Part shown: piece by piece, positions 8,480-64,000 of the stretch
How positions within the stretch are numbered: position 1 is the first letter of the stretch
How the letters are laid out: the number at the start of each line of letters is the position of its first letter
Assembly: GCA_036506735.1 (NCBI GenBank)
Contig: DASXRG010000152.1
Span: 3,226 to 67,225 of the forward strand
Source: Candidatus Binatia bacterium
GTDB lineage: Bacteria > Desulfobacterota > Binatia > UBA9968
Direction: 5' to 3'
Length of the DNA: 64,000 nt
Made by a program: the position numbers and the translations under genes
Notes under the pieces: generated by a model
What the model saw: the letters and a program-made list of their open reading frames with translations, nothing else
What the model was told of the DNA's origin: nothing
Database searches by the model: none

Positions 8480-8491
8480 AAACGCCGGCGA

Positions 8492-8518: not shown

Positions 8519-8575
8519 ACTTCGGTGGGGTGTTTGCTCGATTGATTTTGTCGGAGAGACTGGCAAGGTGGGGTT

Positions 8576-9127: not shown

Positions 9128-9466
9128 ATGCTTTGCAGAAACAAGATCGAACGGTGTTTTTCTACTTTGGTTTTGACCGGCGCCCTCGCGCTCACCGCAA
9201 TGCCGGCGCGCGCCCAAGACGTTCCCGAAGACGTCCCTCCGGGGGTCCAGGGGATTCCTGGCGTGCCGGTCGCTTATTGCCACCTCAAGTTCCCCGCGAT
9301 CGATGAGAAGAGTTTAGGCACCTCACAGCCGATGCTTAAGGAACCCGACCCCGGGAACGTGGTCGATTTCTACGGGCCGTGCGATCACGACCCGCTGGGA
9401 GCCGACGAGGTGAAGAAACAAATACAAGAGCGTTCGGGGGAGACGGACAGCCAATTCTCCGACTAG
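9128..9466 (+). CDS. hypothetical secreted protein
   Basis: ATG at 9128 lies 7 nt after AAGGAG. Signal peptide LVLTGALALTAMPARAQD. No recognisable family. Confidence 0.45.
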   Translation: MLCRNKIERCFSTLVLTGALALTAMPARAQDVPEDVPPGVQGIPGVPVAYCHLKFPAIDEKSLGTSQPMLKEPDPGNVVDFYGPCDHDPLGADEVKKQIQERSGETDSQFSD

Positions 9467-9522
9467 GTTGCCAGCGCGCAGCACCGGGGAGGGGATAAGC
9501 TCTCCGGTGCCCGGCGCCTTGG

Positions 9523-25892: not shown

Positions 25893-27770
25893 TCAATTCT
25901 GGCGCCCAGCTGGCGAAGTTTGCAGCGCAGATAAATTCGCGCGCGCGGCCGCGAAGTCGGGCTTAAGACGAAGCGCAGCCTCATATTCTCTTTTCGCCTC
26001 GGACATTCTTCCCATCCTGAACAGAGCGACCCCTAGATTGTTATGCGCTTCGACGGAGTCAGGCCCCAATTTCAGCGCGCGCCGGTAATATTCTACGGCC
26101 TCGGACGCGAGTCCGGTTTGCAGCAACGTATTACCCAATTGGTTATAAATGTCGACAAGATTCTCGCGCGCCGCCGTGAAGTCGGGGTTGAGGCGCAGCG
26201 CCGCCTCGAATTCTTTCTGCGCTTCGGCGGTCATTCCCATATGGGAGAGGACCGCGCCCAGATTGTTGTGCGCTTCGAAGTAATTCGGCTTCAGCCGCAA
26301 GGCTTCTTGGTAATGGCCCAGAGCTTCCGGCGCGCGGGCTGTTTGAAACAAGGCGTTGCCCAGATTGTTGTGCGCTTGCGGCAGGTCCGGTCTAATCCGG
26401 AGCGTCTGCTCATAGTACGGAATCGCTTCGCGCTGCCGGCCTGAGTCGGCGAGGACCATGCCGATGTTATTGCTGCACATCCAACAGCCGGGATTTTTCA
26501 CCAGGGTCGCTTGATAGAGCGCGATCGGGTCCCGATACATCCGGCTCTGGCGCCAGGTCAAGAACGCCAGGAGCGCCAATACGATCGCGCATGCCGCCTG
26601 GCCCGCCCGCGGCGGCGCGCGCTCCAGAGTGGCCGCGGTCGCGGCGGCGACCACGACGATGATACCCACGCTCGCCAAATACTGGAAGTGGTCGGCCACG
26701 AACGAGAAAATGAACGGGTAAACGTTGAAGAAGCCGAGAACGGGAAAAAGCGAGCCGATGAAAAACAAAAATCCGGCGAGCGGCGCGCGTACGCGCTCTC
26801 GCACGACCCACAGCGTCCCCGTCAACGCGACCGCGGCCAGCGGAAACAGGTACTGCCACCATGCGGCAGGGTCTACCTCCCAGCGCGGATAGATGAACAA
26901 GAGATCGGCCGGCCAGATGAGCTTTCCCAGGTAAAACCAGATCACTCTGCCCGCGAGCAAGAATCGTTGCGCGAGGGTAAACTCGAACGGCGCGCCTTGC
27001 GCGCCGATGAGCGCGCGCTCCACCCACGCGGTAAAAAGTCCGGCGACCGCGCCCAGCGCGAACCACGGCAGCAGCGGCGTGACGTCGCGCCGCCACGAGA
27101 GCCGGCCGCGCTGCCACCAGAAAACGACCAGCAAGGCGCCCGGCAAAGTCGCGGTCACGGTCTTGGTCAACAAGCCGAGAACGAACAAAGCCAGCGCTAT
27201 GCCGTAGAGCGCGGCGCGGCGCTCTACGTCGAAGCGCAGGTACACGAGCGCCGCGCTGAAGTAAAAAAGCGCCGAAAGCGTATTCTTCTGTTCCGTGATC
27301 CAGGCCACCGACTCGACATAGACCGGATGGAGCGCGAAGAGCGCCGCCGCCAGGGCGGCGCCGGGAATTTTCAGCCGGCGGAGAATCAGCAGCAGCAGGC
27401 AGGCGTCGGCCGCGTGGAGCAAGATATTGATCAGATGATATCCCGCGCTCGCGTCGCCCCAGAGCTTGTGCTCGAACCAGAAAGCGCTGTGCAAGAGCGG
27501 ATAGTATTGCTGCGTCGCTCCGAGGTCGAACCAGATGCGCCACAAGCCGTAGAGAGAACGGAGATTCGCGCGGGTCACGTGCGCGGCGTCGTCCCAGAGA
27601 AACTTTCCGGAGAGCGCGGGGAAATAGACGATCAGGACCGCGCCGACGAGTAACGCCGCCGTCCACAGAAGTTCGGGTTGGAAGGCCGTTTGGGCAGGCG
27701 GCGCCGGACGCGGGCGCCCTCGGTCCGGACCTTTTGTTTTCACCTTTGCGGTTTTCTGAGTCGCAGCCAT
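25893..27770 (-). CDS. TMTC-like membrane protein: N-terminal multi-TM GT-C-like domain plus C-terminal TPR repeats
   Basis: 625 aa. FLWDDAAHV...YYPLLHSAFWFEHKLWG..AGYHLINILLH resembles the TMTC/DUF1736 region. About 7 TPR units follow (AHNNLG repeats). Confidence 0.8.
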   Translation of the reverse strand: MAATQKTAKVKTKGPDRGRPRPAPPAQTAFQPELLWTAALLVGAVLIVYFPALSGKFLWDDAAHVTRANLRSLYGLWRIWFDLGATQQYYPLLHSAFWFEHKLWGDASAGYHLINILLHAADACLLLLILRRLKIPGAALAAALFALHPVYVESVAWITEQKNTLSALFYFSAALVYLRFDVERRAALYGIALALFVLGLLTKTVTATLPGALLVVFWWQRGRLSWRRDVTPLLPWFALGAVAGLFTAWVERALIGAQGAPFEFTLAQRFLLAGRVIWFYLGKLIWPADLLFIYPRWEVDPAAWWQYLFPLAAVALTGTLWVVRERVRAPLAGFLFFIGSLFPVLGFFNVYPFIFSFVADHFQYLASVGIIVVVAAATAATLERAPPRAGQAACAIVLALLAFLTWRQSRMYRDPIALYQATLVKNPGCWMCSNNIGMVLADSGRQREAIPYYEQTLRIRPDLPQAHNNLGNALFQTARAPEALGHYQEALRLKPNYFEAHNNLGAVLSHMGMTAEAQKEFEAALRLNPDFTAARENLVDIYNQLGNTLLQTGLASEAVEYYRRALKLGPDSVEAHNNLGVALFRMGRMSEAKREYEAALRLKPDFAAARANLSALQTSPAGRQN

Positions 27771-27791
27771 GGCACGGGCTTATTGCGCGCC

Positions 27792-29720
27792 TTAGCGAGT
27801 GTTTGGCCGAGACGCCGAACCGCTGTGCTCGCGAGCGGCACTCACCGTGCCGTTCGCGCCGCGCCGAGCACTGATGACCAGGCCGCGCTGGTTGGAATCC
27901 AGGGGGTCGCCGCCGATCCGATAGACCGGTTGATAATTGTTTTCGACGAATTCGAGGATCTCACGGCCGCTCTCGGGACTCTCGCCGAAGCGGCGCACGC
28001 CGAACTCCTGCAAATCGCGCGTGATGAAGACCACTCGGTCGGGCGGATCGGCGTGCAATTGTTCCATCAAGATTTTTCGTTCTGCGGGCGTCAAGAAGGC
28101 CGGCTGGAAAACGTAAATGGACGCAGGGCTCGGCAGGCGCGTCAGGTAATTCAACATGATGCCTTCCGGCAATACGAGCAACGTTTGCGCCGACCGGTCG
28201 GCCGTCAGGTACCTCCTCGCCGCCTCGACCAGCGCGCCGGACGGCTCGACGTCCGAGGCGTAGGCGTAAAATCGGTCCGGCCCGGTTCCCACGGGTTGCT
28301 CCTGAAGCGCGAACCGGTCGGCGGAATCCCACGCGACGGCGCCGCCGCCGTAAAGTATCACGACGATCAGCAGAGCTTGATAACATATTCGCGCCGTTCC
28401 AACCAGGGCGAAGCGATCCGGCACGACGGAAAGCAAAGTTGCAATGGCGACAATCGCCGCCAGGGCCGCTTGGTAAAAGCCGTAATGGTACACTCTGGGA
28501 TTCAAAGCCATGCGTACGAGCAGAACGGCGGCCGCAAGCCACAGCAGAATCCGGGTGGCCGTCGCAGCGTCGACGCGGGCGTCGGACCGGGCGCGCCCCA
28601 TGCGCGATAGCTCCAGAAGCCCGGCCAGGATCAGCAGTGCGGGAATGGTTCGCCCCACTTCATTCCAGGGAACCCACGAAAAAATCCAAATGCCGGAGAT
28701 CGCCGCGAGCGCGGCAAAGAGGTACAGCAGGTCGGGAGAACGGCTCCAGCGTCGGCACGCCCAGCCGATGCTTCCGGGGATCGCGACGGCGACGCCGCCC
28801 CAAAGAACCTCTCGCAGCAGATTCGCGGAGATGTTGTCGGTGCCCCGAAAGTATTGCTGTTCCAGCCCTCGTAAGTGAGCCGGAAACCGCAGTGGAGTGA
28901 TCCACGCATTGTTCGCGTATTGCAGCGCGTCCGAAAGCGGAACCCCGGTCCACAGCCGGAACAGCGCCGTCGCCGCGAGCGGCGGCACGATACCGCCCAG
29001 TACGAAACAGAGCGCGGGCACGGCCCAGCGCCGGTTCCACGGCTCGCCGCGTAGTTTTTGCATCAGCAGCGCGACCGCTCCCGTCGTCACCGCCGCCGCG
29101 GCGAGGATGAATTCCGGCTTGAGCAGGACGCAGAGGCCCGCCAGAATCCCCGCGCCAAAAAATTTCCAAGGGCGAAAATGCTCGACGATGCTGCGCCACA
29201 TCAAAACCAACAGCAGGGTCAGCGCTATTCCATGCGTGGCCTCATGCGCGTAGGGAGCGGCGTACGTGTAGTTCCCGATGCCGGCCAGGTGGGAAAAAGA
29301 GAACACCGCCACGAAGACGGCGCACGAGACGCACGCTGCCGCGCGCCCCCAGCCTTCGCGCATCAAATAATACAACAGGACAAGGATCGTCGCGTAAACA
29401 GTCAAGTTGGCGGCGATCAGCGTGGTCAATCCCACTCCAGCCGTTTTGAAGAGCAGGCTGTGGAAATATTGCGACAGCGGCCCGTAGATATGGTACACGT
29501 CCCGATAGAGCACGGCGCCTTGACTGAGGCGCCAGGGCAGGTAAAGTTCGCGGCCGAAATCCACCACCGGGTCCGGCCACTTGCGCCAGGATAAATAAAG
29601 AAAAAAAATCGCCAGCAACACCAGGGCTGCCAGGAGCGCCGTATCGATCAACGTCCACGGGCGCGCGGGAAGAACCGGCGCCGCACGGTTACTCGGTGTG
29701 GCTTTTTTCGCCTTGGCCAT
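27792..29720 (-). CDS. putative GT-C-fold (ArnT/PMT-like) membrane glycosyltransferase
   Basis: Start set at the ATG at 29720 (MAKAKK), 9 nt downstream of the upstream gene stop. More than 10 TM segments and a C-terminal soluble domain of about 200 aa. DFGRELY sits in the first loop. Confidence 0.55.
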   Translation of the reverse strand: MAKAKKATPSNRAAPVLPARPWTLIDTALLAALVLLAIFFLYLSWRKWPDPVVDFGRELYLPWRLSQGAVLYRDVYHIYGPLSQYFHSLLFKTAGVGLTTLIAANLTVYATILVLLYYLMREGWGRAAACVSCAVFVAVFSFSHLAGIGNYTYAAPYAHEATHGIALTLLLVLMWRSIVEHFRPWKFFGAGILAGLCVLLKPEFILAAAAVTTGAVALLMQKLRGEPWNRRWAVPALCFVLGGIVPPLAATALFRLWTGVPLSDALQYANNAWITPLRFPAHLRGLEQQYFRGTDNISANLLREVLWGGVAVAIPGSIGWACRRWSRSPDLLYLFAALAAISGIWIFSWVPWNEVGRTIPALLILAGLLELSRMGRARSDARVDAATATRILLWLAAAVLLVRMALNPRVYHYGFYQAALAAIVAIATLLSVVPDRFALVGTARICYQALLIVVILYGGGAVAWDSADRFALQEQPVGTGPDRFYAYASDVEPSGALVEAARRYLTADRSAQTLLVLPEGIMLNYLTRLPSPASIYVFQPAFLTPAERKILMEQLHADPPDRVVFITRDLQEFGVRRFGESPESGREILEFVENNYQPVYRIGGDPLDSNQRGLVISARRGANGTVSAAREHSGSASRPNTR

Positions 29721-29728
29721 GCCGGCGA

Positions 29729-30514
29729 TCAAATCCCCGCATACCACTCATAACCGCGGTCTTCCCAATAGCCGCCTTTGCCCTGGGCGATTTCTTCGAA
29801 GCTCGCGACGAACTCGATGCGCCGGATGTACTTCGCCATTTTGTATCCCAACTGGGTTTCCACGCGCAGCCGCAGCGGCGCGCCGTGCTCGACGGGCAGC
29901 GGCCGGTCGTTCATCTCGTAAGCGAGGATCGTCTGCGGGTGGCCCGCGTCGCGGAGATCGATGCTTTCATAGAACGCGTTGCCGTCGTCGTCGGTATCCA
30001 TGCAGTAGAAAACTGCGTAGCGCGCGCGGGGGTCCGGCTCGACGTTGATCATGAGCTCCTTTACCGGCACGCCTTTCCACTTGGCGATCGCGCTCCAGCC
30101 CTCGACGCAATCGTGGCGCGTAACCTGCGTCCGCGCCGGCATCGCCTTCAATTGCTCCAGAGTAAAGCGCGCGCGCTTTTTCACCAGGCCGCCGACTTCC
30201 AATCGCCAGTTCGGCCAACCCTGGGCGCTGTCTGTTTGGTACTCGATCGTGAACGGCGGCGGGTTGCCGTTGGGCTTGAAGTGCTTCGAAATGTCTTTTT
30301 CCTCGAATTCCTGGGCCAGGCGTCTTTTCCCGGTCAGCAAGCGGAGCAGGCCGCGATTGGCCGACTCGGCCCATTCGAGAACCGAAACCACCTTCCGGTT
30401 CTGCTGCAGGCCGTTGAACAACTTTTCGCAGCCGGAAAGAAGGACGATGCCGCCGAGTTGAAGCGCGCCCATAAGAATCCGCCTGCGCGAGACGGCCGGA
30501 CTATTTTTCTGCAT
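29729..30514 (-). CDS. molybdopterin-dependent oxidoreductase (YedY/MsrP-like) with Tat signal
   Basis: Start at 30514 (MQKNSPAVSRRRILMG). Contains VTRHDCVEGWSAIAKWKGVP and GAPLRLRVETQLGYKMAKY, typical of the sulfite-oxidase-fold YedY family. Confidence 0.85.
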   Translation of the reverse strand: MQKNSPAVSRRRILMGALQLGGIVLLSGCEKLFNGLQQNRKVVSVLEWAESANRGLLRLLTGKRRLAQEFEEKDISKHFKPNGNPPPFTIEYQTDSAQGWPNWRLEVGGLVKKRARFTLEQLKAMPARTQVTRHDCVEGWSAIAKWKGVPVKELMINVEPDPRARYAVFYCMDTDDDGNAFYESIDLRDAGHPQTILAYEMNDRPLPVEHGAPLRLRVETQLGYKMAKYIRRIEFVASFEEIAQGKGGYWEDRGYEWYAGI

Positions 30515-53059: not shown

Positions 53060-53100
53060 TTGACAAATACCTCGCCAGATTGGTATATAGCGCCAATTTG
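53060..53100 (+). promoter_or_regulatory. sigma70-like promoter with conserved downstream box (TTGACA-N17-GTATATAGCGCCAATTTG)
   Basis: TTGACA at 53060-53065 and TATATA at 53084-89. The 18-mer at 53083-53100 recurs at 61777-61794 with one mismatch. Confidence 0.5.
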
Positions 53101-53143
53101 CCGTCGGATATGCCTGACTAGCGGGCCGCAAGAAAGGAGTCCC

Positions 53144-54892
53144 ATGAATTATTTTCACCCGTACGCGCCTTCACTGGACGAGACGATAATCACTGCGTGG
53201 GATTCTCAGGTCGCCGAGACTCCGTGGCTGGCGCCATCGCTGGCGGCGCAGACTGCTGATTTATTCCCCCGCTTCGCCGTCGCTTACGCCCAGTTGCGCG
53301 CCTTGCCGCGCGGCGCGCGCCGCGCGCTGCAGCGTCAACTCGCGCACTCGCAAGAGCTGGCGACGATTCCGTCTGAGTGGCAACAGAAGCTGGCCCGCTC
53401 GCTGGCCGGCGCGGCGCTGCTGTTGGCGCTTAGCCACGGAGTAGCACAGGCGAACACGATCACGGTTAACACAAACGTTCCGAAGATCATCACAGACGGC
53501 AAGTGTTCGCTGGTCGAGGCGATCATCAATGCCAACAACGACGCCGCGACACACGTCGACTGCGCGGCAGGCAGCGGCGCGGACACGATCGTGCTGCCGG
53601 CGGCCAGTGTTCATACGGTTTTAACCGACTACGATTTTACCTATGGCGCGACACGTCTGCCGGCGATCACGAGCCAAATCACGATTCAAGGAAACGGCAG
53701 CACGATAAACCGAAAGAAGAGCAAGTTACTGTCGCGTCTCATCGCTGTTGCGGCGAGTGGCGATCTCACGCTGGATCGGGTCACCTTAAGCGGCGGGGGG
53801 CAATACAATGGCGGTGCCATTATTAACTTAGGGAGTCTAACGGCCACGAATAGTACGATCTCAGGCAATACGGCTGTCAAAGGCGGCGGCATATACAATG
53901 CCGGCGGCGCTCTCTCTGTCGAAGAAGCTCTCTTTACCAAGAATGCAGGGGTCTATGGCGCCGGGATATTCGACTACAGCGGCACGACCGATATCGAGCA
54001 GAGCACTTTCACGGGTAACAGGACGGTGTATGGCGGGGCCGCTGTATATGGTCGCTTTGGTACGGTAACCATCCAAAACAGTACCATCACCGGTAATAGA
54101 GCCAGCCGTGCCGCGATCTATAATCAAGGCGGCATCCTCGAAATTCACAATACTATTATCACCAAGAACAGCGCTTCAGAGCATGGCGGCGGAGTGATGT
54201 CCAATAATAACCGGAGCTTTTCGCCGCCACCGTGTTCGGTGACGATCGAAAACAGCACGATTAGCGCCAACGCGGCTCATTATGATGGCGGCGGGATCGA
54301 GAACGAAAGCTGCACACTGGTCGTTAGCAACAGCACAATATCGGCCAACAAGTCCGGAACGGGTGCTGGCGGAATATCTACGGGTTTTGCACCGAGTCTG
54401 ATTGAGAACAGCACGATTTCCGCAAACAGTGGGAGATATACAGGCGGGGTGTACGGAGCTACCATCACGGTCACAAACAGCACCATCACGGGTAACAGGG
54501 CGAAATTAGTCGGCGGGGTTTACAATCGAGGCGACATGACTGTAAAGCGGACTATTGTGTCGGGAAACAAAGGGCCGGTGGGTGAGGCCTTAAGCAATCC
54601 CTCCGGGACGATGACCGTCGATAATTTCAACCTCTTCGGCACCAACGGCAATGCCGGGGTCAGCGGATTTACCGCTGGCGCCAGTGATATCATCCCGGGT
54701 GCCGGCGTCCTCACCGGCAATATCCTCGCGCCGCTGGCGAACAACGGCGGGCCGACTCAGACGCATGCCCTCGTCGCCGGTAGTCCGGCGATCGACGCAT
54801 CACCGGTCGACGCGGATTGTCCGTCCAGCGACCAACGTGGAACCTTGCGACCACAGGGTCCGCTGTGCGACATAGGTGCTTTCGAAAAGTAG
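53144..54892 (+). CDS. beta-helix paralogue A: conserved N-extension, signal-like segment, CSLREA-type domain, Pmp-like parallel beta-helix repeats, choice-of-anchor-Q-type C-terminus
   Basis: ATG at 53144 lies 5 nt after AAAGGAG. Order of elements: MNYFHPYAP..., LAGAALLLALSHGVAQA, ITVNT...DGKCSLVEAIINAN, a dozen or more coils of about 23 aa (NSTISGN..GGGIxN), then NNGGPTQTHALVAGSPAIDA...DQRGTLRPQGPLCDIGAFEK. Confidence 0.85.
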   Translation: MNYFHPYAPSLDETIITAWDSQVAETPWLAPSLAAQTADLFPRFAVAYAQLRALPRGARRALQRQLAHSQELATIPSEWQQKLARSLAGAALLLALSHGVAQANTITVNTNVPKIITDGKCSLVEAIINANNDAATHVDCAAGSGADTIVLPAASVHTVLTDYDFTYGATRLPAITSQITIQGNGSTINRKKSKLLSRLIAVAASGDLTLDRVTLSGGGQYNGGAIINLGSLTATNSTISGNTAVKGGGIYNAGGALSVEEALFTKNAGVYGAGIFDYSGTTDIEQSTFTGNRTVYGGAAVYGRFGTVTIQNSTITGNRASRAAIYNQGGILEIHNTIITKNSASEHGGGVMSNNNRSFSPPPCSVTIENSTISANAAHYDGGGIENESCTLVVSNSTISANKSGTGAGGISTGFAPSLIENSTISANSGRYTGGVYGATITVTNSTITGNRAKLVGGVYNRGDMTVKRTIVSGNKGPVGEALSNPSGTMTVDNFNLFGTNGNAGVSGFTAGASDIIPGAGVLTGNILAPLANNGGPTQTHALVAGSPAIDASPVDADCPSSDQRGTLRPQGPLCDIGAFEK

Positions 54893-54896
54893 GCCT

Positions 54897-56660
54897 ATGA
54901 ATTATTTTCAGCATGTTTCTCTAGCGGCGGATCAGACGATTATCGCCGCGTGGGACTCGCAAGTTGCAGAAGCGATCGGAACGCCCGAGGTTGAGGAGCT
55001 CTTAGTGCAGCGGGGAGGCGAGTTGTTTGCGCGCTTCGCTGTGTGCTACGCGCAGTTGCGCGCATTGCCGCGGGGCGCCCGCCGCGCTCTGCTGCGTCAA
55101 CTCACGCGGTCGCAAGTCCTGACGGGCATTTCACCTGAGTCGCAACGCAATCTCGCGCGCACGTTGGCCGGGGCGGCGTTGGTGCTTGCGCTGGGACAAG
55201 GAGTGGCTCAATCGGCCACGATTACCGTCAACACAAACATTCCAACGATTCTTGCGGACGGAAAGTGTTCGCTCGTCGAGGCGATCATCAACGCCAACAA
55301 CGACGCTTTAACCCATCCGGACTGCGCAGCGGGCAGCGGCGCCGACACGATCGCGCTGCCTGCGGCCAGCGTGCACACGATTTTAACCGATTACGACTCC
55401 ACGTATGGCGCCACGCGGTTACCGGCGATCACGAGCCAAATCACCATTCAAGGAAACGGCGGCAAGATCACGCGGAAGAAAAGTAAGCTCCTCTCGCGCT
55501 TAATTGCCGTGGCCAGCTCAGGAGACCTTACACTGGACAATGTAAGCGTAAGCGGCGGGGCGCAATATTTCGGCGGCGCCATAGTTAATTTTGGCATGCT
55601 CACGATTACGGACAGCACACTCTCCGGCAATACGGCCGTCCGCGGCGGCGCCATATATAACTACACGGACGGCGCGGTCACAATTTCTAATAGCGTCATA
55701 ACCGGCAATAAAGCCGCCTATGGCGGCGCGGGTATATTTACGTACCGCGGCGCAGTCACTGTAGAGAGCAGCGCCTTAACAAAAAATGTCGCTCCTTATG
55801 GCGGGGGCGTCTATAGCTACAATGGGACGGTGAGTATCGAGAATAGCACCATATCAAGCAATACGGGCTATCGCGGGGGTGGAATTCGTTATCATGGGGG
55901 AGAGTTCACCATCGAGCGCAGCCTCGTTGCAAACAATAAGGCTGCCGCCAGTGGAGGCGGTATCTCAGGCGAAGACAACGGAACTCTCACCATAAGCAAC
56001 AGCGTCATTTCGGGCAATAGCACCCCTTCGTTTGGCGCCGGCATATCGCTGGCTTCCGCCTACGTGACAATCGAAAACAGCACGATCTCCGGCAACAAGG
56101 CAGGTTACGCGGGTGGCGGCATTGCGAATTTCGGGGCATTTCTAATCATCGAGAACAGCACGATTTCCGGCAACAGTGCCAAGAGGATCGGCGGCGGCCT
56201 ATGGAACCAAGGGCCCGCCGCTCTTAGCCAGACGACCATTTCAAGCAATAGCGTAAAAAATATCGGCGGGGGCATTTACAACTCGTTCAATCAACTGACT
56301 TTGAACCGTAGTCTTGTTTCCGGTAACAAGGCCGGAGTCGGACCTGAAATAAACAATCGCAGCTCGAATTCGGCGACGGTCGTCGCCGATAACTTCAACC
56401 TCTTCGGCGTCAACGGCAATTCCGGGGTCACGGGCTTTGCCCCCGGTGTGTCCGACATCGTACCTCCCGCCGGCGTTCTTATCAGCAACATCCTCGCGCC
56501 GCTCGCGAACAACGGCGGGCCGACTCAGACGCATGCGCTCGTCGCCGGTAGTCCGGCGATCGATGCATCACCGGCCGACGCGGATTGTCCGTCCACCGAT
56601 CAGCGCGGCACTTTGCGACCCCAGGGCCCGCTCTGCGACATCGGCGCTTTCGAAAAATAA
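54897..56660 (+). CDS. beta-helix paralogue B
   Basis: ATG 4 nt after the stop of A. Same architecture as A. The segment after AAWDSQVAE in the N-extension is more divergent. Confidence 0.85.
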   Translation: MNYFQHVSLAADQTIIAAWDSQVAEAIGTPEVEELLVQRGGELFARFAVCYAQLRALPRGARRALLRQLTRSQVLTGISPESQRNLARTLAGAALVLALGQGVAQSATITVNTNIPTILADGKCSLVEAIINANNDALTHPDCAAGSGADTIALPAASVHTILTDYDSTYGATRLPAITSQITIQGNGGKITRKKSKLLSRLIAVASSGDLTLDNVSVSGGAQYFGGAIVNFGMLTITDSTLSGNTAVRGGAIYNYTDGAVTISNSVITGNKAAYGGAGIFTYRGAVTVESSALTKNVAPYGGGVYSYNGTVSIENSTISSNTGYRGGGIRYHGGEFTIERSLVANNKAAASGGGISGEDNGTLTISNSVISGNSTPSFGAGISLASAYVTIENSTISGNKAGYAGGGIANFGAFLIIENSTISGNSAKRIGGGLWNQGPAALSQTTISSNSVKNIGGGIYNSFNQLTLNRSLVSGNKAGVGPEINNRSSNSATVVADNFNLFGVNGNSGVTGFAPGVSDIVPPAGVLISNILAPLANNGGPTQTHALVAGSPAIDASPADADCPSTDQRGTLRPQGPLCDIGAFEK

Positions 56661-56666
56661 GAGCGT

Positions 56667-58160
56667 ATGAATTATTTTCAGCCATACGCGCTGGACGAAA
56701 CGATAGTCGCTGCGTGGGATTCTCAGATCGCCGAGACACCGTGGCTGGCGCAATCGGCGGCGGCGCAGAGTGCTGATTTATTTCCGCGCTTCGCAACCTG
56801 CTACGCGAAGTTGCGCGCATTGCCGCGGGGCTCGCGCCGGGCGTTGCAGCGGCAGCTCGCCCGCTCCCAAGGACCGGCGGCGATTCCGCTGGAGTGGCAG
56901 CCAAAACTCGCGCGCGCGTTGGCCGGAGCCGCGTTGTTGCTGGCGCTGCGACAAGGTTCAGTGCAGGCGGCCACGATAACGGTCAACACAAACATTCCGA
57001 AGATTCTTGCAGACGGCAAGTGTTCGCTGGTCGAGGCCATGGTAAACGCCAATGATACGGCTACAGGTCAGCCCTACGCGGACTGCGCGGCGGGCGATCC
57101 TACCGGAGCCGATACGATCATCCTGCGCAAAGGGACTCAAACGCTCGTAGATTTCTACTACTATGGGCTTGGTTTGCCGCCGGTTACCAGCCAGATCACG
57201 ATTCAAGGCAACGGCGCCAAGATTGTCCGCGCAAAGAATGCACCGGACTTCGGTCTGTTCTTGGTGCGTTCGTATGGTGGCGACCTCACACTCAATAATC
57301 TGACACTCAGCGGGGGTACTCAGTATGTCGGCGCTGTATCTAATCACGGAACTCTCAGAATCACCAACTGTGTCATCACAGGAAACCGAGCCGTAAGCGG
57401 CGGCGGAATATATAATCGCGGCCTTGGCTATATAAGCGACAGCACAATCTCGACAAATAGGGCGACATTCGGCGGCGGCGTGTTCAACATCGGCTCTCTA
57501 CGAATCATTAACTCTGTCATTACCGGTAACACGGCCAGCGGTTTCGGCGGCGGCGTTGATAACGCCTACAGTATCAGCCTTTCTATCGAGAACAGCACTA
57601 TCACGAAAAATTCGTCGGATAACGGCGGCGGGGTAAGCAACTATGGAGGTACCTTTAAAATCTCCAACAGCACCATTTCGAAGAACACAGCTATCCACGA
57701 TGGAGGCGGCGTTTACAACAATCCCGCATATGATGGCAGCTCTTCGTCTATTATCGGCAGCACCATCACGGGAAATAGCTCGGTTAGAGGTGGCGGAGTG
57801 TTTAACTCACGCAACAACTATAGTTACGGCTTCAAAACCACTCTTTCGATCAGCAACAGCACGATCTCAAAGAATTCGGCGACAAATGGCGGCGGTATAT
57901 TCAGCGAGTACCCCGGCGCCGGTCTTGCGACGATGCTCTACGTGAACCAAAACAGCACGATCCAAGGAAACAAAGCTGGCAATGACGGCGGCGGCGTTTA
58001 TAACGGGAGCTACTTTTACCTCGATAACAGCGCAATCTCAAAGAATTCGGCAGGGGCCCGCGGCGGCGGCGTGTTCAATGCGACCCCGTATGTTTTCTCC
58101 CCGACTAACAGCACGATCAGCGGCAACAAGGCGGCTGTTGGACCGAACGTTTTTCTGTGA
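56667..58160 (+). CDS. beta-helix paralogue C, lacking the C-terminal choice-of-anchor-Q-type domain
   Basis: ATG 6 nt after the stop of B. Same N-extension, signal-like segment and CSLVEAM motif. Ends ...SGNKAAVGPNVFL where the other paralogues continue for about 100 aa. Confidence 0.8.
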   Translation: MNYFQPYALDETIVAAWDSQIAETPWLAQSAAAQSADLFPRFATCYAKLRALPRGSRRALQRQLARSQGPAAIPLEWQPKLARALAGAALLLALRQGSVQAATITVNTNIPKILADGKCSLVEAMVNANDTATGQPYADCAAGDPTGADTIILRKGTQTLVDFYYYGLGLPPVTSQITIQGNGAKIVRAKNAPDFGLFLVRSYGGDLTLNNLTLSGGTQYVGAVSNHGTLRITNCVITGNRAVSGGGIYNRGLGYISDSTISTNRATFGGGVFNIGSLRIINSVITGNTASGFGGGVDNAYSISLSIENSTITKNSSDNGGGVSNYGGTFKISNSTISKNTAIHDGGGVYNNPAYDGSSSSIIGSTITGNSSVRGGGVFNSRNNYSYGFKTTLSISNSTISKNSATNGGGIFSEYPGAGLATMLYVNQNSTIQGNKAGNDGGGVYNGSYFYLDNSAISKNSAGARGGGVFNATPYVFSPTNSTISGNKAAVGPNVFL

Positions 58161-58201
58161 GCGTCGCCGGGTTTAGTTTGGCGCTTTAGTCAAAAAACAC
58201 C

Positions 58202-59962
58202 ATGAACTACTTGCGGCCTTACGCGCCTCCACTGGACGTGACGATAGTCGCTGCGTGGGATTTTCAGATCGCCGAGACACCGTGGCTGGCGCAATCGGCG
58301 GCGGCGCAGAGTGCTGATTTATTTCCGCGCTTCGCAACCTGCTACGCGCAGTTGCGCGCATTGCCGCGGGGCGCCCGCCGCGCGCTCCAACGTCGACTCG
58401 CGAGCTCGCAAGACCTGGCGGCGATTCCGCCTGAGTGGCGACAGAAACTGGCGCGCTCCGTGGCCGGCGCAGCGTTGCTGTTGGCGCTGGGGCAAGGAGT
58501 AGCTCAGGCGGCCACGATAACGGTCAACACAAACATTCCGAAGATTCTTGCTGACGGAAAGTGTTCGCTCGTCGAGGCGATCATCAACGCCAACAACGAC
58601 GCTTTAACCCATCCGGACTGCGCAGCGGGCAGCGGCGCCGACACGATCGTGCTGCCAGCAGCCAGTGTCCATACGGTATTAAACGATTACGATTTCACCT
58701 ATGGCGCCACCCGTCTGCCGGCGATCACGAGCCAAATCACGATCGAAGGAAACGGCAGCAAGATTACGCGAAAGAAAAGTAAAGTCCAGTCTCGATTAAT
58801 GGCTGTAACGACTACCGGCGATCTGACCCTCAAGAACGTGACGCTCAGTGGGGGGCAACATTCCTATGGAGGTGCGCTGTTCAATTATGGCGGTCTCATG
58901 ATCAACGAGAGCACCATTACAGGAAACAGTGCCGTTACAGGTGGAGCGGTAGCTAACGGTGCCGGTGCCGGCCTCGTTATCGAAGATAGCCTCTTTTCGA
59001 AAAACACGGCTGTTACCGGTGGCGGGATTTTTAATTATAAAGGCGATGTCACGGTTCGTAACAGTAGTCTCACCGGACACAAGACGATCTTCAGCGGCGG
59101 CGGTTTGTATGATGTTTCCGGGACCGTAACGATCGAGAGCGTGATCATTGATGGAAATAAGGCCGGCGCCGGCGGCGCCATCTATGCCAAAGGTAGCCTG
59201 CTCGACGTTAACAGCAGCATGATCTCGGGGAACAGCGCCGGTAGTCACGGCGGCGGCATTTGGATCGCTTCTACTCTTGGCGGCAGCGCCACAGTAACGA
59301 TTGCAAATAGCACGGTCGCGGGTAACAAGGCTCACTACAGTTCTGCCGGAATCCTACACCAAAACTTCGGCGGCACGCTTACGATTCAGAACAGCGCCGT
59401 TTTAGGCAATACTGCAAGTGCAGGCGGCGGAGGGATCGAGCAGACGTCCGGGACCATGACGATTGAGAATAGCACTATTTCCGGTAACCGCGGCGGTTCT
59501 GAAGGTGCCGGTATATGGAATCAGAACACTGCAACAATTCGTAATAGCACTATCTCGGGTAATACATCTAAACGGAGCGGGGGAGTTCGCAATTCGGGAC
59601 AACTTACACTCGATCGGAACCTTATTTCCGGTAATAAAGCCGCAGTCGGGCGTGAAATCTACAGTTACACGAGCGGCACGGTCGTCGCCGACAACTTCAA
59701 CTTATTTGGTAATAACGGCAGTGCGGGCGTGGTAGGTTTCTTACCCGGCGCCACCGACATCGTGCCGGGCGCCGGCGTCCTCATCAGCAACATCCTCGCG
59801 CCGCTCGCGAACAACGGCGGGCCGACTCAGACGCATGCGCTCGTCGCCGGTAGTCCGGCGATCGATGCATCACCGGCCGACGCGGATTGTCCGTCCACCG
59901 ACCAACGTGGAACCTTGCGGCCACAGGGTCCGCTCTGCGACATCGGCGCTTTCGAAAAATAA
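58202..59962 (+). CDS. beta-helix paralogue D
   Basis: Same architecture. The 5' end is nearly identical to C, an internal block is identical to B, and the 3' end is a B-like then A-like chimera. Confidence 0.85.
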   Translation: MNYLRPYAPPLDVTIVAAWDFQIAETPWLAQSAAAQSADLFPRFATCYAQLRALPRGARRALQRRLASSQDLAAIPPEWRQKLARSVAGAALLLALGQGVAQAATITVNTNIPKILADGKCSLVEAIINANNDALTHPDCAAGSGADTIVLPAASVHTVLNDYDFTYGATRLPAITSQITIEGNGSKITRKKSKVQSRLMAVTTTGDLTLKNVTLSGGQHSYGGALFNYGGLMINESTITGNSAVTGGAVANGAGAGLVIEDSLFSKNTAVTGGGIFNYKGDVTVRNSSLTGHKTIFSGGGLYDVSGTVTIESVIIDGNKAGAGGAIYAKGSLLDVNSSMISGNSAGSHGGGIWIASTLGGSATVTIANSTVAGNKAHYSSAGILHQNFGGTLTIQNSAVLGNTASAGGGGIEQTSGTMTIENSTISGNRGGSEGAGIWNQNTATIRNSTISGNTSKRSGGVRNSGQLTLDRNLISGNKAAVGREIYSYTSGTVVADNFNLFGNNGSAGVVGFLPGATDIVPGAGVLISNILAPLANNGGPTQTHALVAGSPAIDASPADADCPSTDQRGTLRPQGPLCDIGAFEK

Positions 59963-60137
59963 TCGTTGTCGGCCTCGTTTTTTCTCGCCAGCCTCCAGTT
60001 TACTGTAGGGAAAATCCGTCAGTTTAGCCTCCAGTAAACTTTTTTTCCAAACCCACGTCTAAGTAAGTGCCAGTTTACTTACATGGGGTTTCTACCTGCA
60101 TGTTCGCGCTCAGGATACAGAAAGTTGAGGAACCAGC

Positions 60138-61721
60138 ATGAATTATTTTAGTCCGTTCTCGCTTTCCGCAGACGAAACGGTACTCGCCGCGTGGGATTCG
60201 CAAGTTGCTCAAGCGTCGGAGGATCCCTTTCTTGCCGAGGCGTTGGCGCAGGCTGGAAGCGAGATGTTGCCGCGCTTTGCCGCCCGTTACGCGCAGTTGC
60301 GCGCGTTGCCCCGCGGCGCCCGCCGCACTCTCCAGCGCCAATTGGCGCGTTCGCGCGAGCTGGCCACGATTTCGCCGGAGTGGCAGCCAAAACTCGCGCG
60401 CACGTTGGCCGGCACCGCGTTGTTGCTAGCCCTCGCGCACGGCGTCAGCCAGGCCGCGACGATAACGGTCAACACCAACATTCCGAAGATCAATCCGGAC
60501 GGACTATGCTCGCTGATCGAGGCGATCGTCAATGCCAACGACGACGCTGCAACCCATGCCGATTGCGCCGCGGGCAGCGGCGCGGACGTAATCGATCTGG
60601 CGCCGGCCAGCATCCATACGGTCACGAACAAGTTCGTCCAATATCATGGCGCCACCGGCCTGCCGACGATTACGAGCCAAATCACGATCGACGGCAACGG
60701 CGGCAAGATCGTCGCTAAAAGAGGCGCGTCGTTTCGCTTGTTGGCGGTGGAAAGCTCAGGGGATCTTACCCTATCGAACGTGACCGTGAGCGGCGGGTCG
60801 CAAAATCATGGCGGCGCGATATTTAGCTATGGCACGCTCACGATCAACGACAGCACGATCACCGCGAGCAAGGCCAACTTGGGCGGCGGCGTATTCAACG
60901 GCGCAGCCGCCGTTCTCAACATCGACGGCAGCACCATTTCGAAGAACACGGCGGCATACGGCGGCGGCTTGTACGATTACAGCGGCGCCGTCACCATCGC
61001 CAACAGCACGATCACCGGCAACAAGGCGTTCATCGACGGCGGCGGCATTTACGAACGCTCCGGTACTCTCACGGTCACGTACAGCACGATTTCGAAAAAC
61101 ACCTCGATTCGCGACGGCGCCGGCCTGCACGGCCGCGACAGCTACGCTACGATCGGCTACAGCACGATCTCCGGCAACACCGCCGGCTTCTTCGGTTACG
61201 GCGGCGGCGTTTACGACCGCTCGAGCACGACCACGATCGAAAACAGCACGATCTCAGGCAACAAGGCGAGAGCCGGCGCCGGCATATTCACGCGCGCGAC
61301 GCTCACCGTTTCCAACAGCACGATCGCGAAAAATACCGCCGACGACGGCGGCGGGATATTGAACCTGCGCGATCTGACTCTCAAGCGCACCCTGATATCG
61401 GGCAACTCCGCGTTCATCGGGCGGGAGATCGACGATTTCGACACGGTCACGCGGAATAATTACAACTTGTTCGGTAACAACGGCTACGACGGCGTTATCG
61501 GTTTTTCGCCAGGGGGAACGGACATCGTGCCCGGCGTCGGTCTTGCCGGCATCATCGGTCCGCTCGCCAACAACGGCGGCCCGACGCAGACGCATGCGCT
61601 GGTTACCGGGAGTCCGGCCATAGATGCGGCTCCTGCGGATGCCGACTGTCCCGCGGCCGATCAGCGCGGCACCGCGCGGCCGCAAGGAGCGAGCTGCGAC
61701 ATCGGTTCTTTCGAAAAGTAG
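60138..61721 (+). CDS. beta-helix paralogue E (higher-GC, most divergent copy)
   Basis: Preceded by a 175-nt spacer and GAGGAA. Same architecture: MNYFSPFS..., LAGTALLLALAHGVSQA, DGLCSLIEAIVNAN, NSTITGN coils, and DQRGTARPQGASCDIGSFEK. Confidence 0.85.
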   Translation: MNYFSPFSLSADETVLAAWDSQVAQASEDPFLAEALAQAGSEMLPRFAARYAQLRALPRGARRTLQRQLARSRELATISPEWQPKLARTLAGTALLLALAHGVSQAATITVNTNIPKINPDGLCSLIEAIVNANDDAATHADCAAGSGADVIDLAPASIHTVTNKFVQYHGATGLPTITSQITIDGNGGKIVAKRGASFRLLAVESSGDLTLSNVTVSGGSQNHGGAIFSYGTLTINDSTITASKANLGGGVFNGAAAVLNIDGSTISKNTAAYGGGLYDYSGAVTIANSTITGNKAFIDGGGIYERSGTLTVTYSTISKNTSIRDGAGLHGRDSYATIGYSTISGNTAGFFGYGGGVYDRSSTTTIENSTISGNKARAGAGIFTRATLTVSNSTIAKNTADDGGGILNLRDLTLKRTLISGNSAFIGREIDDFDTVTRNNYNLFGNNGYDGVIGFSPGGTDIVPGVGLAGIIGPLANNGGPTQTHALVTGSPAIDAAPADADCPAADQRGTARPQGASCDIGSFEK

Positions 61722-61753
61722 CGGCTCGCATCGCTGCAGCTTTCTATTCTTTA

Positions 61754-61805
61754 TTGACAGGGCGCGGTTAAATTTAGTATATAGCGCCAGTTTGTAGCGC
61801 TATAT
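61754..61805 (+). promoter_or_regulatory. sigma70-like promoter with the same conserved box, plus a 9-bp inverted repeat reaching the start codon
   Basis: TTGACA at 61754-61759 and TATATA at 61778-83. GTATATAGCGCCAGTTTG at 61777-61794. ATATAGCGC (61779-87) / GCGCTATAT (61797-61805). Confidence 0.5.
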
Positions 61806-64000
61806 GGCCGAAGTTCCTCCCTCGCCGCAGGACGCTGCCTTGCGCAGCGTTCACACCGCAAACCTGCCGGCAATCTTCGATCAGCTCCAAATCAGTGTCG
61901 TCGTTTCCACCTATCAGGCGGGCAAAACGATCCTCGTCCGCAACGACAACGGCACGCTCAACACCCACTTCCGCACATTTGCCAAGCCGATGGGGATCGC
62001 CGCGGATCACGCGCGGCTCACGATCGGCGGCTCGAACACGGTTTGGGAATACCGCAACATGCCGGCCGTGGCGGAGAAACTGGAGCCCGCCGGGAAACAC
62101 GACGGCTGCTATCTCCCGCGCCGCATCCATGTGACCGGCGACATCGACATCCACGAGCTCGCGTGGGACCGCGACAACGAGCTGTGGATCGTGAACACGC
62201 GTTTTTGCTGTCTCTGCACGCTCGACGCCGACCACAGCTTTCATCCGCGCTGGCGCCCGAAGTTCGTCACGGCCTTGGCGCCCGAGGATCGGTGCCATTT
62301 GAACGGCCTCGCGATGGTCGATGGCCGGCCGAAATACGTCACGGCGCTGGGTGAGACCGACACGGCCGGCGGCTGGCGCGCGAACAAGGCCAAGGGCGGT
62401 ATTCTGATGGACGTCGAGACCGACGAAATCCTGCTGCGCGGTCTCTCGATGCCGCACTCGCCGCGCTGGTATCAGGGGAAGCTCTGGGTGCTCGAATCAG
62501 GCGAAGGGAGCTTGGCGCTGGTCGATCTCGACAAGCGCACGTGGCGCACCATCGCGCAAGTGCCCGGCTTCACGCGCGGGATCGATTTTCTCGGCCCGCT
62601 CGCATTCATCGGGCTCTCGCAGGTGCGCGAGAGCGCGGTGTTCAGCGGCATTCCACTGGTCCAGCGGCTCAGCGAGCGCACCTGCGGTGTGTGGGTGGTG
62701 AATATAGAAACCGGCCAGACCGTCGGCTTTCTCCGCTTCGAGGCGGGTGTGCAAGAGATCTTCGCGGTGCAGCTCCTGCAAGGCATCCGTTTTCCCGAGA
62801 TGCTGGAATGGAACGACCCGCGGGTCTCTCAGTCATATGTCCTTCCCGACGAGGCGCTCGCCGATGTGGTTCTTCCCACCGCGGAAGAGCTGGCGCGCAG
62901 TCCGGCGTTCCACTTCCAACGCGGCAATGAATTTTATGACCAGGGCAAGCTCGGCGAAGCCATCGCCGCGTATCGCCAGTGCGTCGCCGTCCAGCCGGAT
63001 TTTCCCAATGCGCGCTACAATCTCGGCGTGGCGCTCGGCGACGCCGGGCGATATCAGGAGGCGACGAGCTGGTTGCAGCAGGTCGTCGAGGCCGAGCACG
63101 AAAAAGCCGAAGCGCACAACAGCCTGGGATTCGTTCTCGCCCGGCAGCGTCAGCCGCGTAAAGCGATCGCGTGCTACGAGCGCGCGATCGAGCTGCAACC
63201 GAATTATATTCAAGCGCATGTCAATCTCGGCATGAGCCTGCTGCAAATCGGCGACTACGCGCGCGGCTTCGCCGAATACGATTGGCGCTCAAAGCTGACG
63301 CCGATGCCGTTTCAATCGTCCCATCCCAAATGGGACGGCAGTCCGATAGCGGAGAAGACGCTTCTCGTCCCTGCCGAGCAGGGCGCCGGCGACGCGATTC
63401 AATTCGCGCGCTATCTGCCGCTGGCGGCAAAGCTTTGCCGGAAATTGGTCGTCATGTGCCGCGCGGATCTGATTCCGCTATTTTCCACTCTGCCCGGAAT
63501 AGCCGAGCTGCGGCAACCCGGCCAGATCGGGATGGCGGAGTTCGATACCTACCTGCCGCTGCTCAGCCTGCCGCGCGTGTTCGGCACAACCGTCGATGCG
63601 ATTCCCGCGGACGTGCCGTATATCGATAGCGCCGCGCTCCGCCGGCGCAGAGACGATCCGTCCCTGCTCTTGCCGGCCGCGTCGTGTCCGCGCGTCGGCA
63701 TCGTTTGGGCGGGGAGCCCGGACAACCGCACCGACAGCCAGCGCTCGTGCGCATTGGCGGAGTTTCTGCCGCTTCTGCGCATTCCAACCTTGGCGTTCTA
63801 CAGCTTGCAAAAAGGAGAGCGCGCGAAAGATCTCGCCGATGTGCCTGCCGCGGTGACCGATCTGCAGCCGCTGCTCGGCGACTTCGGCGATACCGCCGTG
63901 ATCGTCGATCAACTCGATCTGCTCATCACCGTCGATACGGCGGCGGCCCACCTGGCCGGAGCGCTCGGCAAGCCGGTGTGGAATCTGCTGACCGACGTCG
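61804..64000 (+). CDS. TIGR03032/DUF4915-like domain + TPR repeats + GT9 (heptosyltransferase-like) glycosyltransferase fusion; 3' end beyond window
   Basis: Not in the supplied ORF track. My own translation from the ATG at 61804 is open for 732 codons to base 64000: MAEVPPSPQD...VVVSTYQAGKTILVRN...ELAWDRDNELWIVNTRFCCLCTL...HPRWRPKFVTALAPEDRCHLNGLAMVDGRPKYVT... then TPR units (AIAAYRQCVAVQPDFPNARYNLG, AHNSLG, AHVNLG), then EQGAGDAIQFARYLP...VGIVWAGSP...ITVDTAAAHLAGALGKPVW. Confidence 0.85.
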   Translation, partial: MAEVPPSPQDAALRSVHTANLPAIFDQLQISVVVSTYQAGKTILVRNDNGTLNTHFRTFAKPMGIAADHARLTIGGSNTVWEYRNMPAVAEKLEPAGKHDGCYLPRRIHVTGDIDIHELAWDRDNELWIVNTRFCCLCTLDADHSFHPRWRPKFVTALAPEDRCHLNGLAMVDGRPKYVTALGETDTAGGWRANKAKGGILMDVETDEILLRGLSMPHSPRWYQGKLWVLESGEGSLALVDLDKRTWRTIAQVPGFTRGIDFLGPLAFIGLSQVRESAVFSGIPLVQRLSERTCGVWVVNIETGQTVGFLRFEAGVQEIFAVQLLQGIRFPEMLEWNDPRVSQSYVLPDEALADVVLPTAEELARSPAFHFQRGNEFYDQGKLGEAIAAYRQCVAVQPDFPNARYNLGVALGDAGRYQEATSWLQQVVEAEHEKAEAHNSLGFVLARQRQPRKAIACYERAIELQPNYIQAHVNLGMSLLQIGDYARGFAEYDWRSKLTPMPFQSSHPKWDGSPIAEKTLLVPAEQGAGDAIQFARYLPLAAKLCRKLVVMCRADLIPLFSTLPGIAELRQPGQIGMAEFDTYLPLLSLPRVFGTTVDAIPADVPYIDSAALRRRRDDPSLLLPAASCPRVGIVWAGSPDNRTDSQRSCALAEFLPLLRIPTLAFYSLQKGERAKDLADVPAAVTDLQPLLGDFGDTAVIVDQLDLLITVDTAAAHLAGALGKPVWNLLTDV

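Follow-up and report, generated by a model that had tools for sequence, protein, structure and literature searches.

To our knowledge, the decoration of beta-helix surface proteins in the cytoplasm is so far known from few adhesins of pathogens (AIDA-I, TibA and HMW1). The heptosyltransferases TibC and AAH modify beta-helix autotransporters in this compartment, and hallmarks of their family (BAHT) are a flattened beta-barrel at the N-terminus, ahead of the catalytic domain, and a four-cysteine iron finger in the C-lobe (PMC4358343). The BAHT enzymes assemble into a dodecameric ring through a beta-hairpin thumb. FlmG binds six flagellin paralogues by its N-terminal TPR domain and glycosylates them before export by its C-terminal GT-B domain (PMC7591256). 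In this study, a 64-kb stretch of DNA (the window) from contig DASXRG010000152.1 of a Candidatus Binatia bacterium was analyzed, in whose last 11 kb a set of genes for comparable proteins is located. Five tandem paralogous genes on the + strand (bh1 to bh5, 53144-61721) code for predicted secreted beta-helix proteins. ORF6, which lies directly downstream of bh5 on the same strand, begins at position 61804 and is truncated by the window end, with 732 codons inside the window. Its product has no signal peptide and is composed, in this order, of a TIGR03032/DUF4915 propeller, TPR repeats and a GT9-like domain. This arrangement, on which the original prediction for this DNA was built, was confirmed by open reading frame (ORF) calls, Pfam and NCBIfam. 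The idea derived from it, namely a cytoplasmic enzyme dedicated to the neighboring beta-helix proteins, fits the evidence and the precedents; however, the GT9-like domain proved to be an optional module and is of neither the BAHT nor the HMW1C type.

One genome per GTDB species was scanned, which gave 79 loci with a DUF4915 gene and flanks of up to 10 kb per side. By tblastn with the five paralogues, a beta-helix homologue was detected in 44 of the 79 loci. When all ORFs were clustered, the beta-helix family was the sole neighbor common to many loci, with 65 genes in 44 of them; the second most common family was present in nine. The nearest beta-helix gene is less than 1.8 kb away from DUF4915 in 43 of the 44 loci and is nearly always the adjoining gene, upstream or downstream and mostly on the same strand. 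As an internal control, the beta-helix coding share of the flanks was determined; it amounts to 19-26% of the bases within 2 kb of DUF4915 and falls steadily to about 1% at 6-10 kb. The taxa represented include Binatia, Delta- and Gammaproteobacteria, Chloroflexota (Caldilineales, Anaerolineales, Ardenticatenaceae), Cyanobacteria and Planctomycetota. Thus, the co-occurrence of TIGR03032 and beta-helix genes that the original prediction had asked about exists in many phyla, and this recurring neighborhood provides the TIGR03032 family with a first functional context.

The partner conserved in these loci is the propeller and not the GT9-like domain that had been placed at the center. The latter was found only as a fusion to DUF4915 (TPR plus GT9-like, 29 loci), and a search for a separate GT9-like gene within 10 kb of an unfused DUF4915 gene revealed none. 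Among the loci whose flanks measure 2.5 kb or more on either side, a beta-helix gene adjoins 8 of 17 GT9 fusions, four of five hydroxylase-sulfotransferase fusions and 16 of 28 DUF4915 genes that stand alone or are fused to TPR only; without this flank filter, adjacency was observed in 11 of the 29 GT9-fused loci. The second type of fusion, present in six loci, joins an Asp/Asn beta-hydroxylase (Asp_Arg_Hydrox, E 1e-10 to 1e-15) and a Sulfotransfer_3 domain (E 1e-24 to 1e-29) to DUF4915 in proteins of 1,000-1,075 aa from Wenzhouxiangellaceae, Alcanivoracaceae, Alcaligenaceae and Holophagales. Since adjacency is as frequent without the GT9-like domain, and since the propeller is elsewhere fused to hydroxylase and sulfotransferase or occurs alone, the constant element is the pairing of propeller and beta-helix protein, to which an interchangeable, modular chemistry is attached. 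That DUF4915 and the beta-helix family are functionally linked is, in our view, highly probable.

The hydroxylase-sulfotransferase fusions are those of loci L057, L058, L061, L071, L073 and L077, with the DUF4915 gene at approximately 8000-11100 in most of them. A giant beta-helix gene adjoins the fusion gene in most of these loci. In L050 and L066, the N-terminal part of about 400 aa was not recognized by Pfam and by eye resembles the hydroxylase part.

For the GT9-like domain of ORF6, a GT-B fold with conserved donor-binding residues is supported by the structural model and by alignment. The truncated window copy scored 16 bits with PF01075 (GT9), below the cut-off of 22, while 12 of 12 full-length homologues exceeded it (about 26.7 bits), though only over profile positions 174-218 of 247, the donor-binding segment. 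PDB sequence-profile searches with the domain gave nothing, even at E 10. The AlphaFold2 model is a two-lobed alpha/beta structure with a predicted local distance difference test (pLDDT) value of 91.5. Its Foldseek ranks 1-21 were all GT9 enzymes (WaaF, Veillonella GT9, WaaC and TibC) with E 1e-8 to 5e-5 and template modeling (TM) scores of 0.51-0.58; they include WaaF 1psw (E 1e-8), 2h1h, 2gt1, 6dfe and TibC 4rap/4rb4 (E about 1e-5, TM 0.51-0.54). The HMW1C-like AaNGT 8p0o followed only at rank 50 (TM 0.37). For HepI, the roles of the catalytic and donor-site residues Asp13, Lys192 and Asp261/Thr262/His266 have been reported (bioRxiv 10.1101/2021.06.16.448588). In an alignment with a provisional WaaC sequence, D220, T221 and H225 of the conserved motif V-D-T-x-x-x-H-L (at least 90% or invariant) match HepI D261, T262 and H266, and a conserved basic D-R-x-R-S stretch is located at HepI K192. 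G36-D37 within the conserved E-Q-G-x-G-D sits where HepI has S-M-G-D13, as placed by motif inspection of the alignment and not by superposition. Due to the aligned donor-site residues and the G-D motif, the domain looks catalytically competent. Two alignments revealed no four conserved cysteines in its C-lobe; the conserved cysteines are limited to C52 and C59, which belong to the N-lobe. A Pfam GT41 match was found neither in ORF6 nor in its homologues.

The five paralogues showed Beta_helix or Chlam_PMP repeats in Pfam. The choice-of-anchor-Q domain (NF041518) was detected in bh1, bh2, bh4 and bh5 at 82-86 bits compared to a cut-off of 25 (E about 1e-23 to 1e-24), and an NCBIfam search with hidden Markov models (HMMs) did not find it in bh3. 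The coil consensus of the five proteins is L-T-I-x-N-S-T-I-S-G-N-x-A-x-x-G-G-G-I. N-S-T, which had been described as invariant, is only frequent in these coils, with three to six exact copies per paralogue and D/G/Y/E-S-T or N-S-V/A in the remaining ones. Ser and Thr together account for 18-19% of the residues. The N-terminal cap motif reads C-S-L-V/I-E-A-I-x-N-A-N, and the C-termini end on ...CDIGAFEK without a sorting signal or GlyGly-CTERM. Scores for rhombotarget A (TIGR04212 equivalog) were 32-45 bits compared to a cut-off of 295. The bh3 gene (56667-58160) stops inside a coil (...NSTISGNKAAVGPNVFL). The features of the gene set are compiled in Table 1.

Table 1. Positions of the genes, domains and putative regulatory elements in the last 11 kb of the window
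Feature	Position	Strand	Description	Basis
Promoter box P1	53060-53100	+	TTGACA-N18-TATATAGCGCCAATTTG, upstream of bh1	
bh1	53144-54892	+	582 aa; leader of about 85 aa, Sec-type signal peptide, predicted right-handed beta-helix, choice-of-anchor-Q C-terminus	Pfam Beta_helix E 3e-12; NF041518 E 2e-23; leader HMM E 2e-38
bh2	54897-56660	+	587 aa; architecture as bh1	Chlam_PMP repeat; NF041518 E 1.5e-24; leader HMM E 6e-38
bh3	56667-58160	+	497 aa; paralogue without choice-of-anchor-Q C-terminus	Leader HMM E 3e-35
bh4	58202-59962	+	586 aa; leader aa 1-85; signal peptide aa 86-103 (SVAGAALLLALGQGVAQA, followed by ATITV)	
Terminator-like hairpin, then U7	59997-60047	+	Between bh4 and bh5	Free energy -15.6 kcal/mol, z -3.1
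bh5	60138-61721	+	527 aa	Beta_helix E 3e-12; NF041518 E 5.5e-24; leader HMM E 1e-39
Promoter box P2	61754-61794	+	TTGACA-N18-TATATAGCGCCAGTTTG, upstream of ORF6; runs into a 10-bp inverted repeat ending at the ORF6 ATG	
Inverted repeat	61778-61806		TATATAGCGC-N9-GCGCTATATG, 10 bp; spans the -10 element of P2 and ends on the ORF6 start codon	Free energy -12 kcal/mol, z -1.75
ORF6 domain 1	61849-62817	+	TIGR03032/DUF4915 (PF16261), aa 16-338, predicted six-bladed beta-propeller	TIGR03032 420.2 bits (cut-off 251.5); PF16261 441 bits (cut-off 35), E 3e-132
ORF6 domain 2	62899-63273	+	TPR repeats, aa 366-490	TPR_1, TPR_2 and TPR_11, E 1e-20 to 1e-26
ORF6 domain 3	63277-64000	+	GT9-like GT-B domain; truncated by the window end, with about 55-70 aa of the C-terminus missing	Alignment to homologues of 780-805 aa

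All five paralogues start with M-N-Y-F... and share approximately 85 residues ahead of the signal peptide. The conserved N-terminal extension of the original prediction is thus real and, due to its position, would act in the cytoplasm. It contains the motif ...A-A-W-D-S-Q...F-P-R-F-A-x-x-Y-A-x-L-R-A-L-P-R-G-A-R-R-A-L-Q-R... and is followed by a signal peptide of the type K-L-A-R / S-L-A-G-A-A-L-L-L-A-L / G-x-G-V-A-Q-A next to A-T-I-T-V, i.e. a basic n-region, the h-region LAGAALLLAL and then AQA in front of A. A word-indexed search with the leader yielded mostly short frameshifted fragments from long-read data, which said little on architecture; hence, an exhaustive profile search was performed. 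It gave 566 clusters at 50% identity, in which the leader always covers residues 1 to about 97 of proteins of 400-1,066 aa. Among 67 full-length carriers there are 44 RbtA-like beta-helices, and 39 carriers possess the choice-of-anchor-Q domain, so that a C-terminal loss of the bh3 type looks like natural variation. No Pfam family, including ESPR (PF13018), covers residues 1-110 of the five paralogues or the 67 leader-bearing homologues, and a PDB profile search with the leader gave noise only. In the 998 ORFs of the 79 loci, a leader HMM produced matches in 17 loci, every one a beta-helix gene next to DUF4915. Reverse look-ups placed six of nine informative leader-bearing proteins directly beside DUF4915 (P0219, P0143, P0125, P0224, P0478 and P0227). 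Judging from these sequence comparisons, the leader is an undescribed N-terminal domain which is essentially confined to this beta-helix family and usually adjoins DUF4915.

The leader-positive loci are those whose DUF4915 is at least about 70% identical to that of the window, including Chloroflexota at 76-78%. Such a pattern would fit a transfer of the module as a unit, a co-evolution of propeller and leader, or both. In other lineages, many adjoining beta-helix genes code for an ordinary signal peptide that is not preceded by a leader; therefore, the leader appears to be a clade-specific addition that is not required for the pairing. The DUF4915 sequences of L028 and L030 (Chloroflexota: Anaerolineales, Promineifilaceae) are the ones 76-78% identical to the window copy (61804-62865), and the Chloroflexota sequences are closer to this Binatia-like copy than many proteobacterial ones are. 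Their similarity points to a cross-phylum horizontal transfer of the propeller together with the leader-bearing beta-helix module.

Some further observations concern individual leader-bearing genes. In L081 (8809-9843, long-read assembly), a divergent homologue of DUF4915 (35% identity, E 2e-46) that had escaped the gene callers and the Pfam table is located immediately upstream of the leader-like P0227. L086 (2254-12800) encodes a divergent leader-bearing beta-helix protein of 1,066 aa with no DUF4915 in the available sequence. Its neighbors are a TPR-sulfotransferase, several methyltransferases, an NTP-transferase and a GT2 gene, a cluster that may be an alternative tailoring gene set. P0125 is a mini-gene of 140 aa found directly after the DUF4915-TPR-GT9 gene in two independent assemblies (L083, 10001-10423; L084, 5649-6071). 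It consists of the leader and about 1.5 beta-helix coils and lacks a signal peptide. A role as decoy or regulator is conceivable, as is a paralogue in decay. Most database matches of the leader (P0121-P0227) are fragments of 70-190 aa that switch frame just after the signal peptide. Due to such long-read frameshifts in repetitive GC-rich beta-helix genes, the family is systematically mis-called in public metagenome assemblies. Export by twin-arginine translocation was considered with regard to the LPRxxRR motif and rejected as unsupported; in the window, 20-30 residues lie between RR and the h-region.

We give an even chance to the proposal that ORF6 and the paralogues form a two-part module which tailors beta-helix proteins in the cytoplasm before export. 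Since the attached domains, which are all tailoring domains of the protein or group-transfer kind, depend on co-substrates of the cytoplasm and since ORF6 lacks a signal peptide, we infer a system working in the cytoplasm, with the beta-helix proteins as putative substrates, glycosylation as the putative reaction and acceptor residues and a sugar that are likewise presumed. The five paralogues would be surface or secreted right-handed beta-helices of the PMP-repeat, CSLREA-like, choice-of-anchor-Q kind, made as precursors in which the leader of about 85 aa is followed by an ordinary Sec-type signal peptide. The DUF4915 propeller would be the core partner, responsible for substrate recognition or for a catalytic step of its own, and the TPR domain would add protein binding. 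The GT9-like domain would move a sugar from a nucleotide-sugar to the precursor, most plausibly to a Ser, Thr or Asn residue within the recurring coil motif, and export would remove leader and signal peptide. That the beta-helix proteins are post-translationally tailored at all is, in our estimation, evenly balanced; glycosylation specifically by the GT9-like domain falls somewhat short of this. It is conceivable that TIGR03032/DUF4915 is the core of an unrecognized, widespread pre-export tailoring system, in which the propeller, either a metallo- or phospho-/sulfo-enzyme or an obligate adaptor, recognizes full-size beta-helix precursors, in one clade via the leader, and directs interchangeable glycosylation, Asn/Asp hydroxylation and sulfation. 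This wider reading is tentative and rather unlikely.

Several points weigh against a tailoring module. Approximately 40-50% of the DUF4915 loci with full flanks have no adjoining beta-helix gene, and three divergent leader-bearing proteins are without DUF4915 within the available sequence. The support for a modification consists of genomic context and predicted fold. The match to the GT9 profile spans only 45 of 247 positions besides the empty PDB search, and the position of the N-lobe catalytic Asp was taken from motif inspection rather than from an explicit superposition; the WaaC sequence of the donor-site alignment was provisional. The best matches of the propeller, at TM of about 0.5, are non-enzymatic Kelch and designed proteins, and it could be a binding module instead of an enzyme. 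The N-S-T coil motif is common throughout this family of repeats, and its presence does not by itself mark an acceptor site. Finally, genes of the ADP-heptose or another nucleotide-sugar pathway, which the original prediction had proposed to look for, were not present among the 10 other window genes scanned.

The properties of the propeller bear on the first alternative. AlphaFold2 gave a confident six-bladed propeller for DUF4915 (pLDDT 93.6). As Foldseek retrieved generic Kelch, designed and YWTD propellers only and no specific enzyme relative, the chemistry of the propeller cannot be inferred from its fold; a PDB profile search produced only a non-significant single-blade resemblance to soluble pyrroloquinoline quinone (PQQ) glucose dehydrogenase (E 0.13). 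Four His, three Cys, seven Arg and several Asp, Glu and Asn residues are invariant across 28 diverse DUF4915 sequences, which suggests a ligand or active site. The family is large, with 5,361 homologues of ORF6 at E < 1e-10, and DUF4915 identity across phyla is 60-80%. Full-length homologues of ORF6 (780-805 aa, 67-80% identical) stem from metagenome-assembled genomes of Binatia, Delta- and Gammaproteobacteria and are annotated merely as 'TIGR03032 family'. When a Lysobacterales protein of 44% identity was used as the query of a further search, the cultured carriers Dokdonella, Marinicella, Chiayiivirga and Pseudomarimonas were added. Cultured carriers suited to experiments include Dokdonella immobilis, Marinicella spp., Chiayiivirga flava, Pseudomarimonas arenosa, Halioxenophilus aromaticivorans and Wenzhouxiangella sp. 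In a literature search, no paper mentioning TIGR03032 or DUF4915 was found. An analogy to the metal assembly by NosZ/NosD-like propeller and beta-helix proteins was set aside, DUF4915 having no signal peptide and the beta-helix proteins being exported.

According to this alternative, the propeller (with TPR) would not be catalytic but would serve beta-helix precursors in the cytoplasm as a holdase, targeting factor or adaptor. By binding the leader or nascent coils, it would keep the precursors export-competent or time their export, and the GT9, hydroxylase and sulfotransferase domains would be lineage-specific add-ons. Kelch propellers, the best fold matches, bind peptides, and DUF4915 standing alone without an enzyme domain is the commonest form beside beta-helix genes; the placement of the leader ahead of the signal peptide would suit an adaptor as well, as would the fact that leader-bearing beta-helix genes go with the DUF4915 subclade at least 70% identical to that of the window. 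We nevertheless regard this explanation as unlikely. Its weakness is the large number of polar residues conserved across phyla, which is more in line with an active or ligand site than with a protein-binding face, and the cross-phylum identity would be unusually high for a chaperone. Moreover, a leader to be bound is missing from many adjoining beta-helix genes.

A second alternative assigns the two partners to a shared glycan. The beta-helix proteins would then be secreted carbohydrate-active enzymes (lyase, hydrolase or epimerase-like), and the DUF4915-TPR-GT9 protein or its hydroxylase/sulfotransferase variants would build or decorate a polysaccharide or glycolipid in the cytoplasm. The right-handed beta-helix is indeed the classic fold of polysaccharide lyases and epimerases, but the matches of the paralogues are to PMP-repeat families of the adhesin type and to RbtA-like families, with no lyase family among them. 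The usual substrates of GT9 enzymes are lipopolysaccharide (LPS) cores, and sulfotransferases and glycosyltransferases decorate glycans, too; on the other hand, Asp/Asn beta-hydroxylase and TPR domains indicate protein substrates, and the module also exists in Chloroflexota, which are not known to have LPS. One divergent leader-bearing gene clusters with methyltransferase, NTP-transferase and GT2 genes, yet the conserved neighbors include neither a polymerase or flippase nor an exporter or sugar-nucleotide gene, this position being held by the beta-helix family only. We consider a shared glycan quite improbable. Pure coincidence or hitch-hiking of a functionally unrelated TIGR03032 gene with abundant beta-helix genes, for which the loci lacking an adjoining beta-helix gene (about half) and the large, often multi-copy family would speak, is effectively excluded by the 20- to 25-fold enrichment of beta-helix coding next to DUF4915 with its monotonic decay, by the recurrence of the pairing in at least five phyla and in varied orientations, by the agreement of the reverse look-ups and by the promoter box common to both units of the window.

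This box of 41 nt, TTGACA-N18-TATATAGCGCCARTTTG, has exactly two matches in the window compared to none expected by chance, one ahead of each unit; the original prediction had claimed such a shared box. Position 53060, previously taken for a TTG start, is the -35 hexamer of the promoter-like box, whereas bh1 actually begins with the ATG at 53144. The exact box is absent from the other 85 loci. The inverted repeat at the ORF6 start might serve as an operator or fold into a hairpin in which the start codon is hidden, and a comparable ATAGCGC...GCGCTAT arrangement precedes the DUF4915 gene in the related loci L001, L002 and L083. The genes bh1 to bh4 are tightly packed with spacers of 4-41 nt. 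The hairpin and U7 after bh4 suggest a single transcription unit for bh1-bh4, with separate transcription or attenuation of bh5. The element GTAAACTTTTTTT was seen again in spacers between the beta-helix genes of L001 and L002.

Outside the gene set, two adjoining genes on the - strand (25893-29747; 625 and 651 aa) gave weak matches to PMT_2, i.e. to membrane glycosyltransferases similar to dolichyl-phosphate-mannose protein mannosyltransferases. The first one also possesses C-terminal TPR repeats. The pair is possibly a second protein glycosylation system of this DNA, and nothing evident connects it to the beta-helix/DUF4915 module.

The TIGR03032/DUF4915 family is large and strongly conserved, and its link to one substrate-like family and three kinds of tailoring domain makes its function testable. 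The data suggest that cytoplasmic decoration of beta-helix surface proteins may be widespread in environmental bacteria, and a new leader domain ahead of Sec signal peptides has been defined. If tailoring were directed by this leader, the leader-guided logic of RiPPs (ribosomally synthesized and post-translationally modified peptides) would be extended to whole secreted proteins.

Compared to the known systems, the locus resembles the BAHT pairs in that a gene for a GT9-related GT-B enzyme is located beside a gene for a repetitive beta-helix protein, ORF6 being presumably cytoplasmic. TibA/AIDA-I and the paralogues both have extended N-terminal signal regions, and TibC is among the best structural matches. 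By contrast, the GT domain of ORF6 has neither the N-terminal beta-barrel nor the four-Cys iron finger and is preceded by the DUF4915 propeller and TPR. The paralogues differ as well, since they are not autotransporters, lack a beta-barrel translocator, have a choice-of-anchor-Q C-terminus and carry a leader of about 85 aa that is not ESPR. With HMW1C/NGT (GT41) and HMW1, the locus shares the concept that a glycosyltransferase in the cytoplasm serves one particular secreted beta-helix adhesin, in which N-x-S/T sequons occur and the signal peptide is extended, but the fold match of ORF6 to this type is far weaker than that to GT9. Thus, ORF6 is a member of neither the BAHT nor the HMW1C-type (GT41) enzymes. 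The LPS heptosyltransferases WaaC and WaaF (GT9) provided the best structural matches and, judging from the alignment and motif inspection above, probably have the D-T-x-x-x-H donor and G-D motifs in common with ORF6; however, sequence identity is only 11-14%, the Pfam match is restricted to the donor-binding segment, and ORF6 is fused to protein-binding modules and adjoins protein genes rather than LPS core genes. FlmG, the flagellin O-glycosyltransferase of Caulobacter, set beside ORF6 by description, acts on several paralogous secreted structural proteins before export, as is proposed for ORF6. It differs from ORF6 in lacking a DUF4915 propeller, in modifying flagellins and in using pseudaminic acid as donor. 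As to the beta-helix proteins, the RbtA, CSLREA and choice-of-anchor-Q family has the N-terminal cap motif, the PMP-like coils and the choice-of-anchor-Q domain in common with the paralogues, which are distinguished by scores far under the equivalog cut-off, by the lack of GlyGly-CTERM and by the novel leader. The term CSLREA is said to occur in work on type II secretion substrates of Acinetobacter, and we know of no dedicated modifying enzyme described for this family. Hence, the module may be seen as a variation on the theme of a beta-helix adhesin with its dedicated cytoplasmic modifying enzyme, assembled from uncharacterized parts, the DUF4915 propeller and a new leader.

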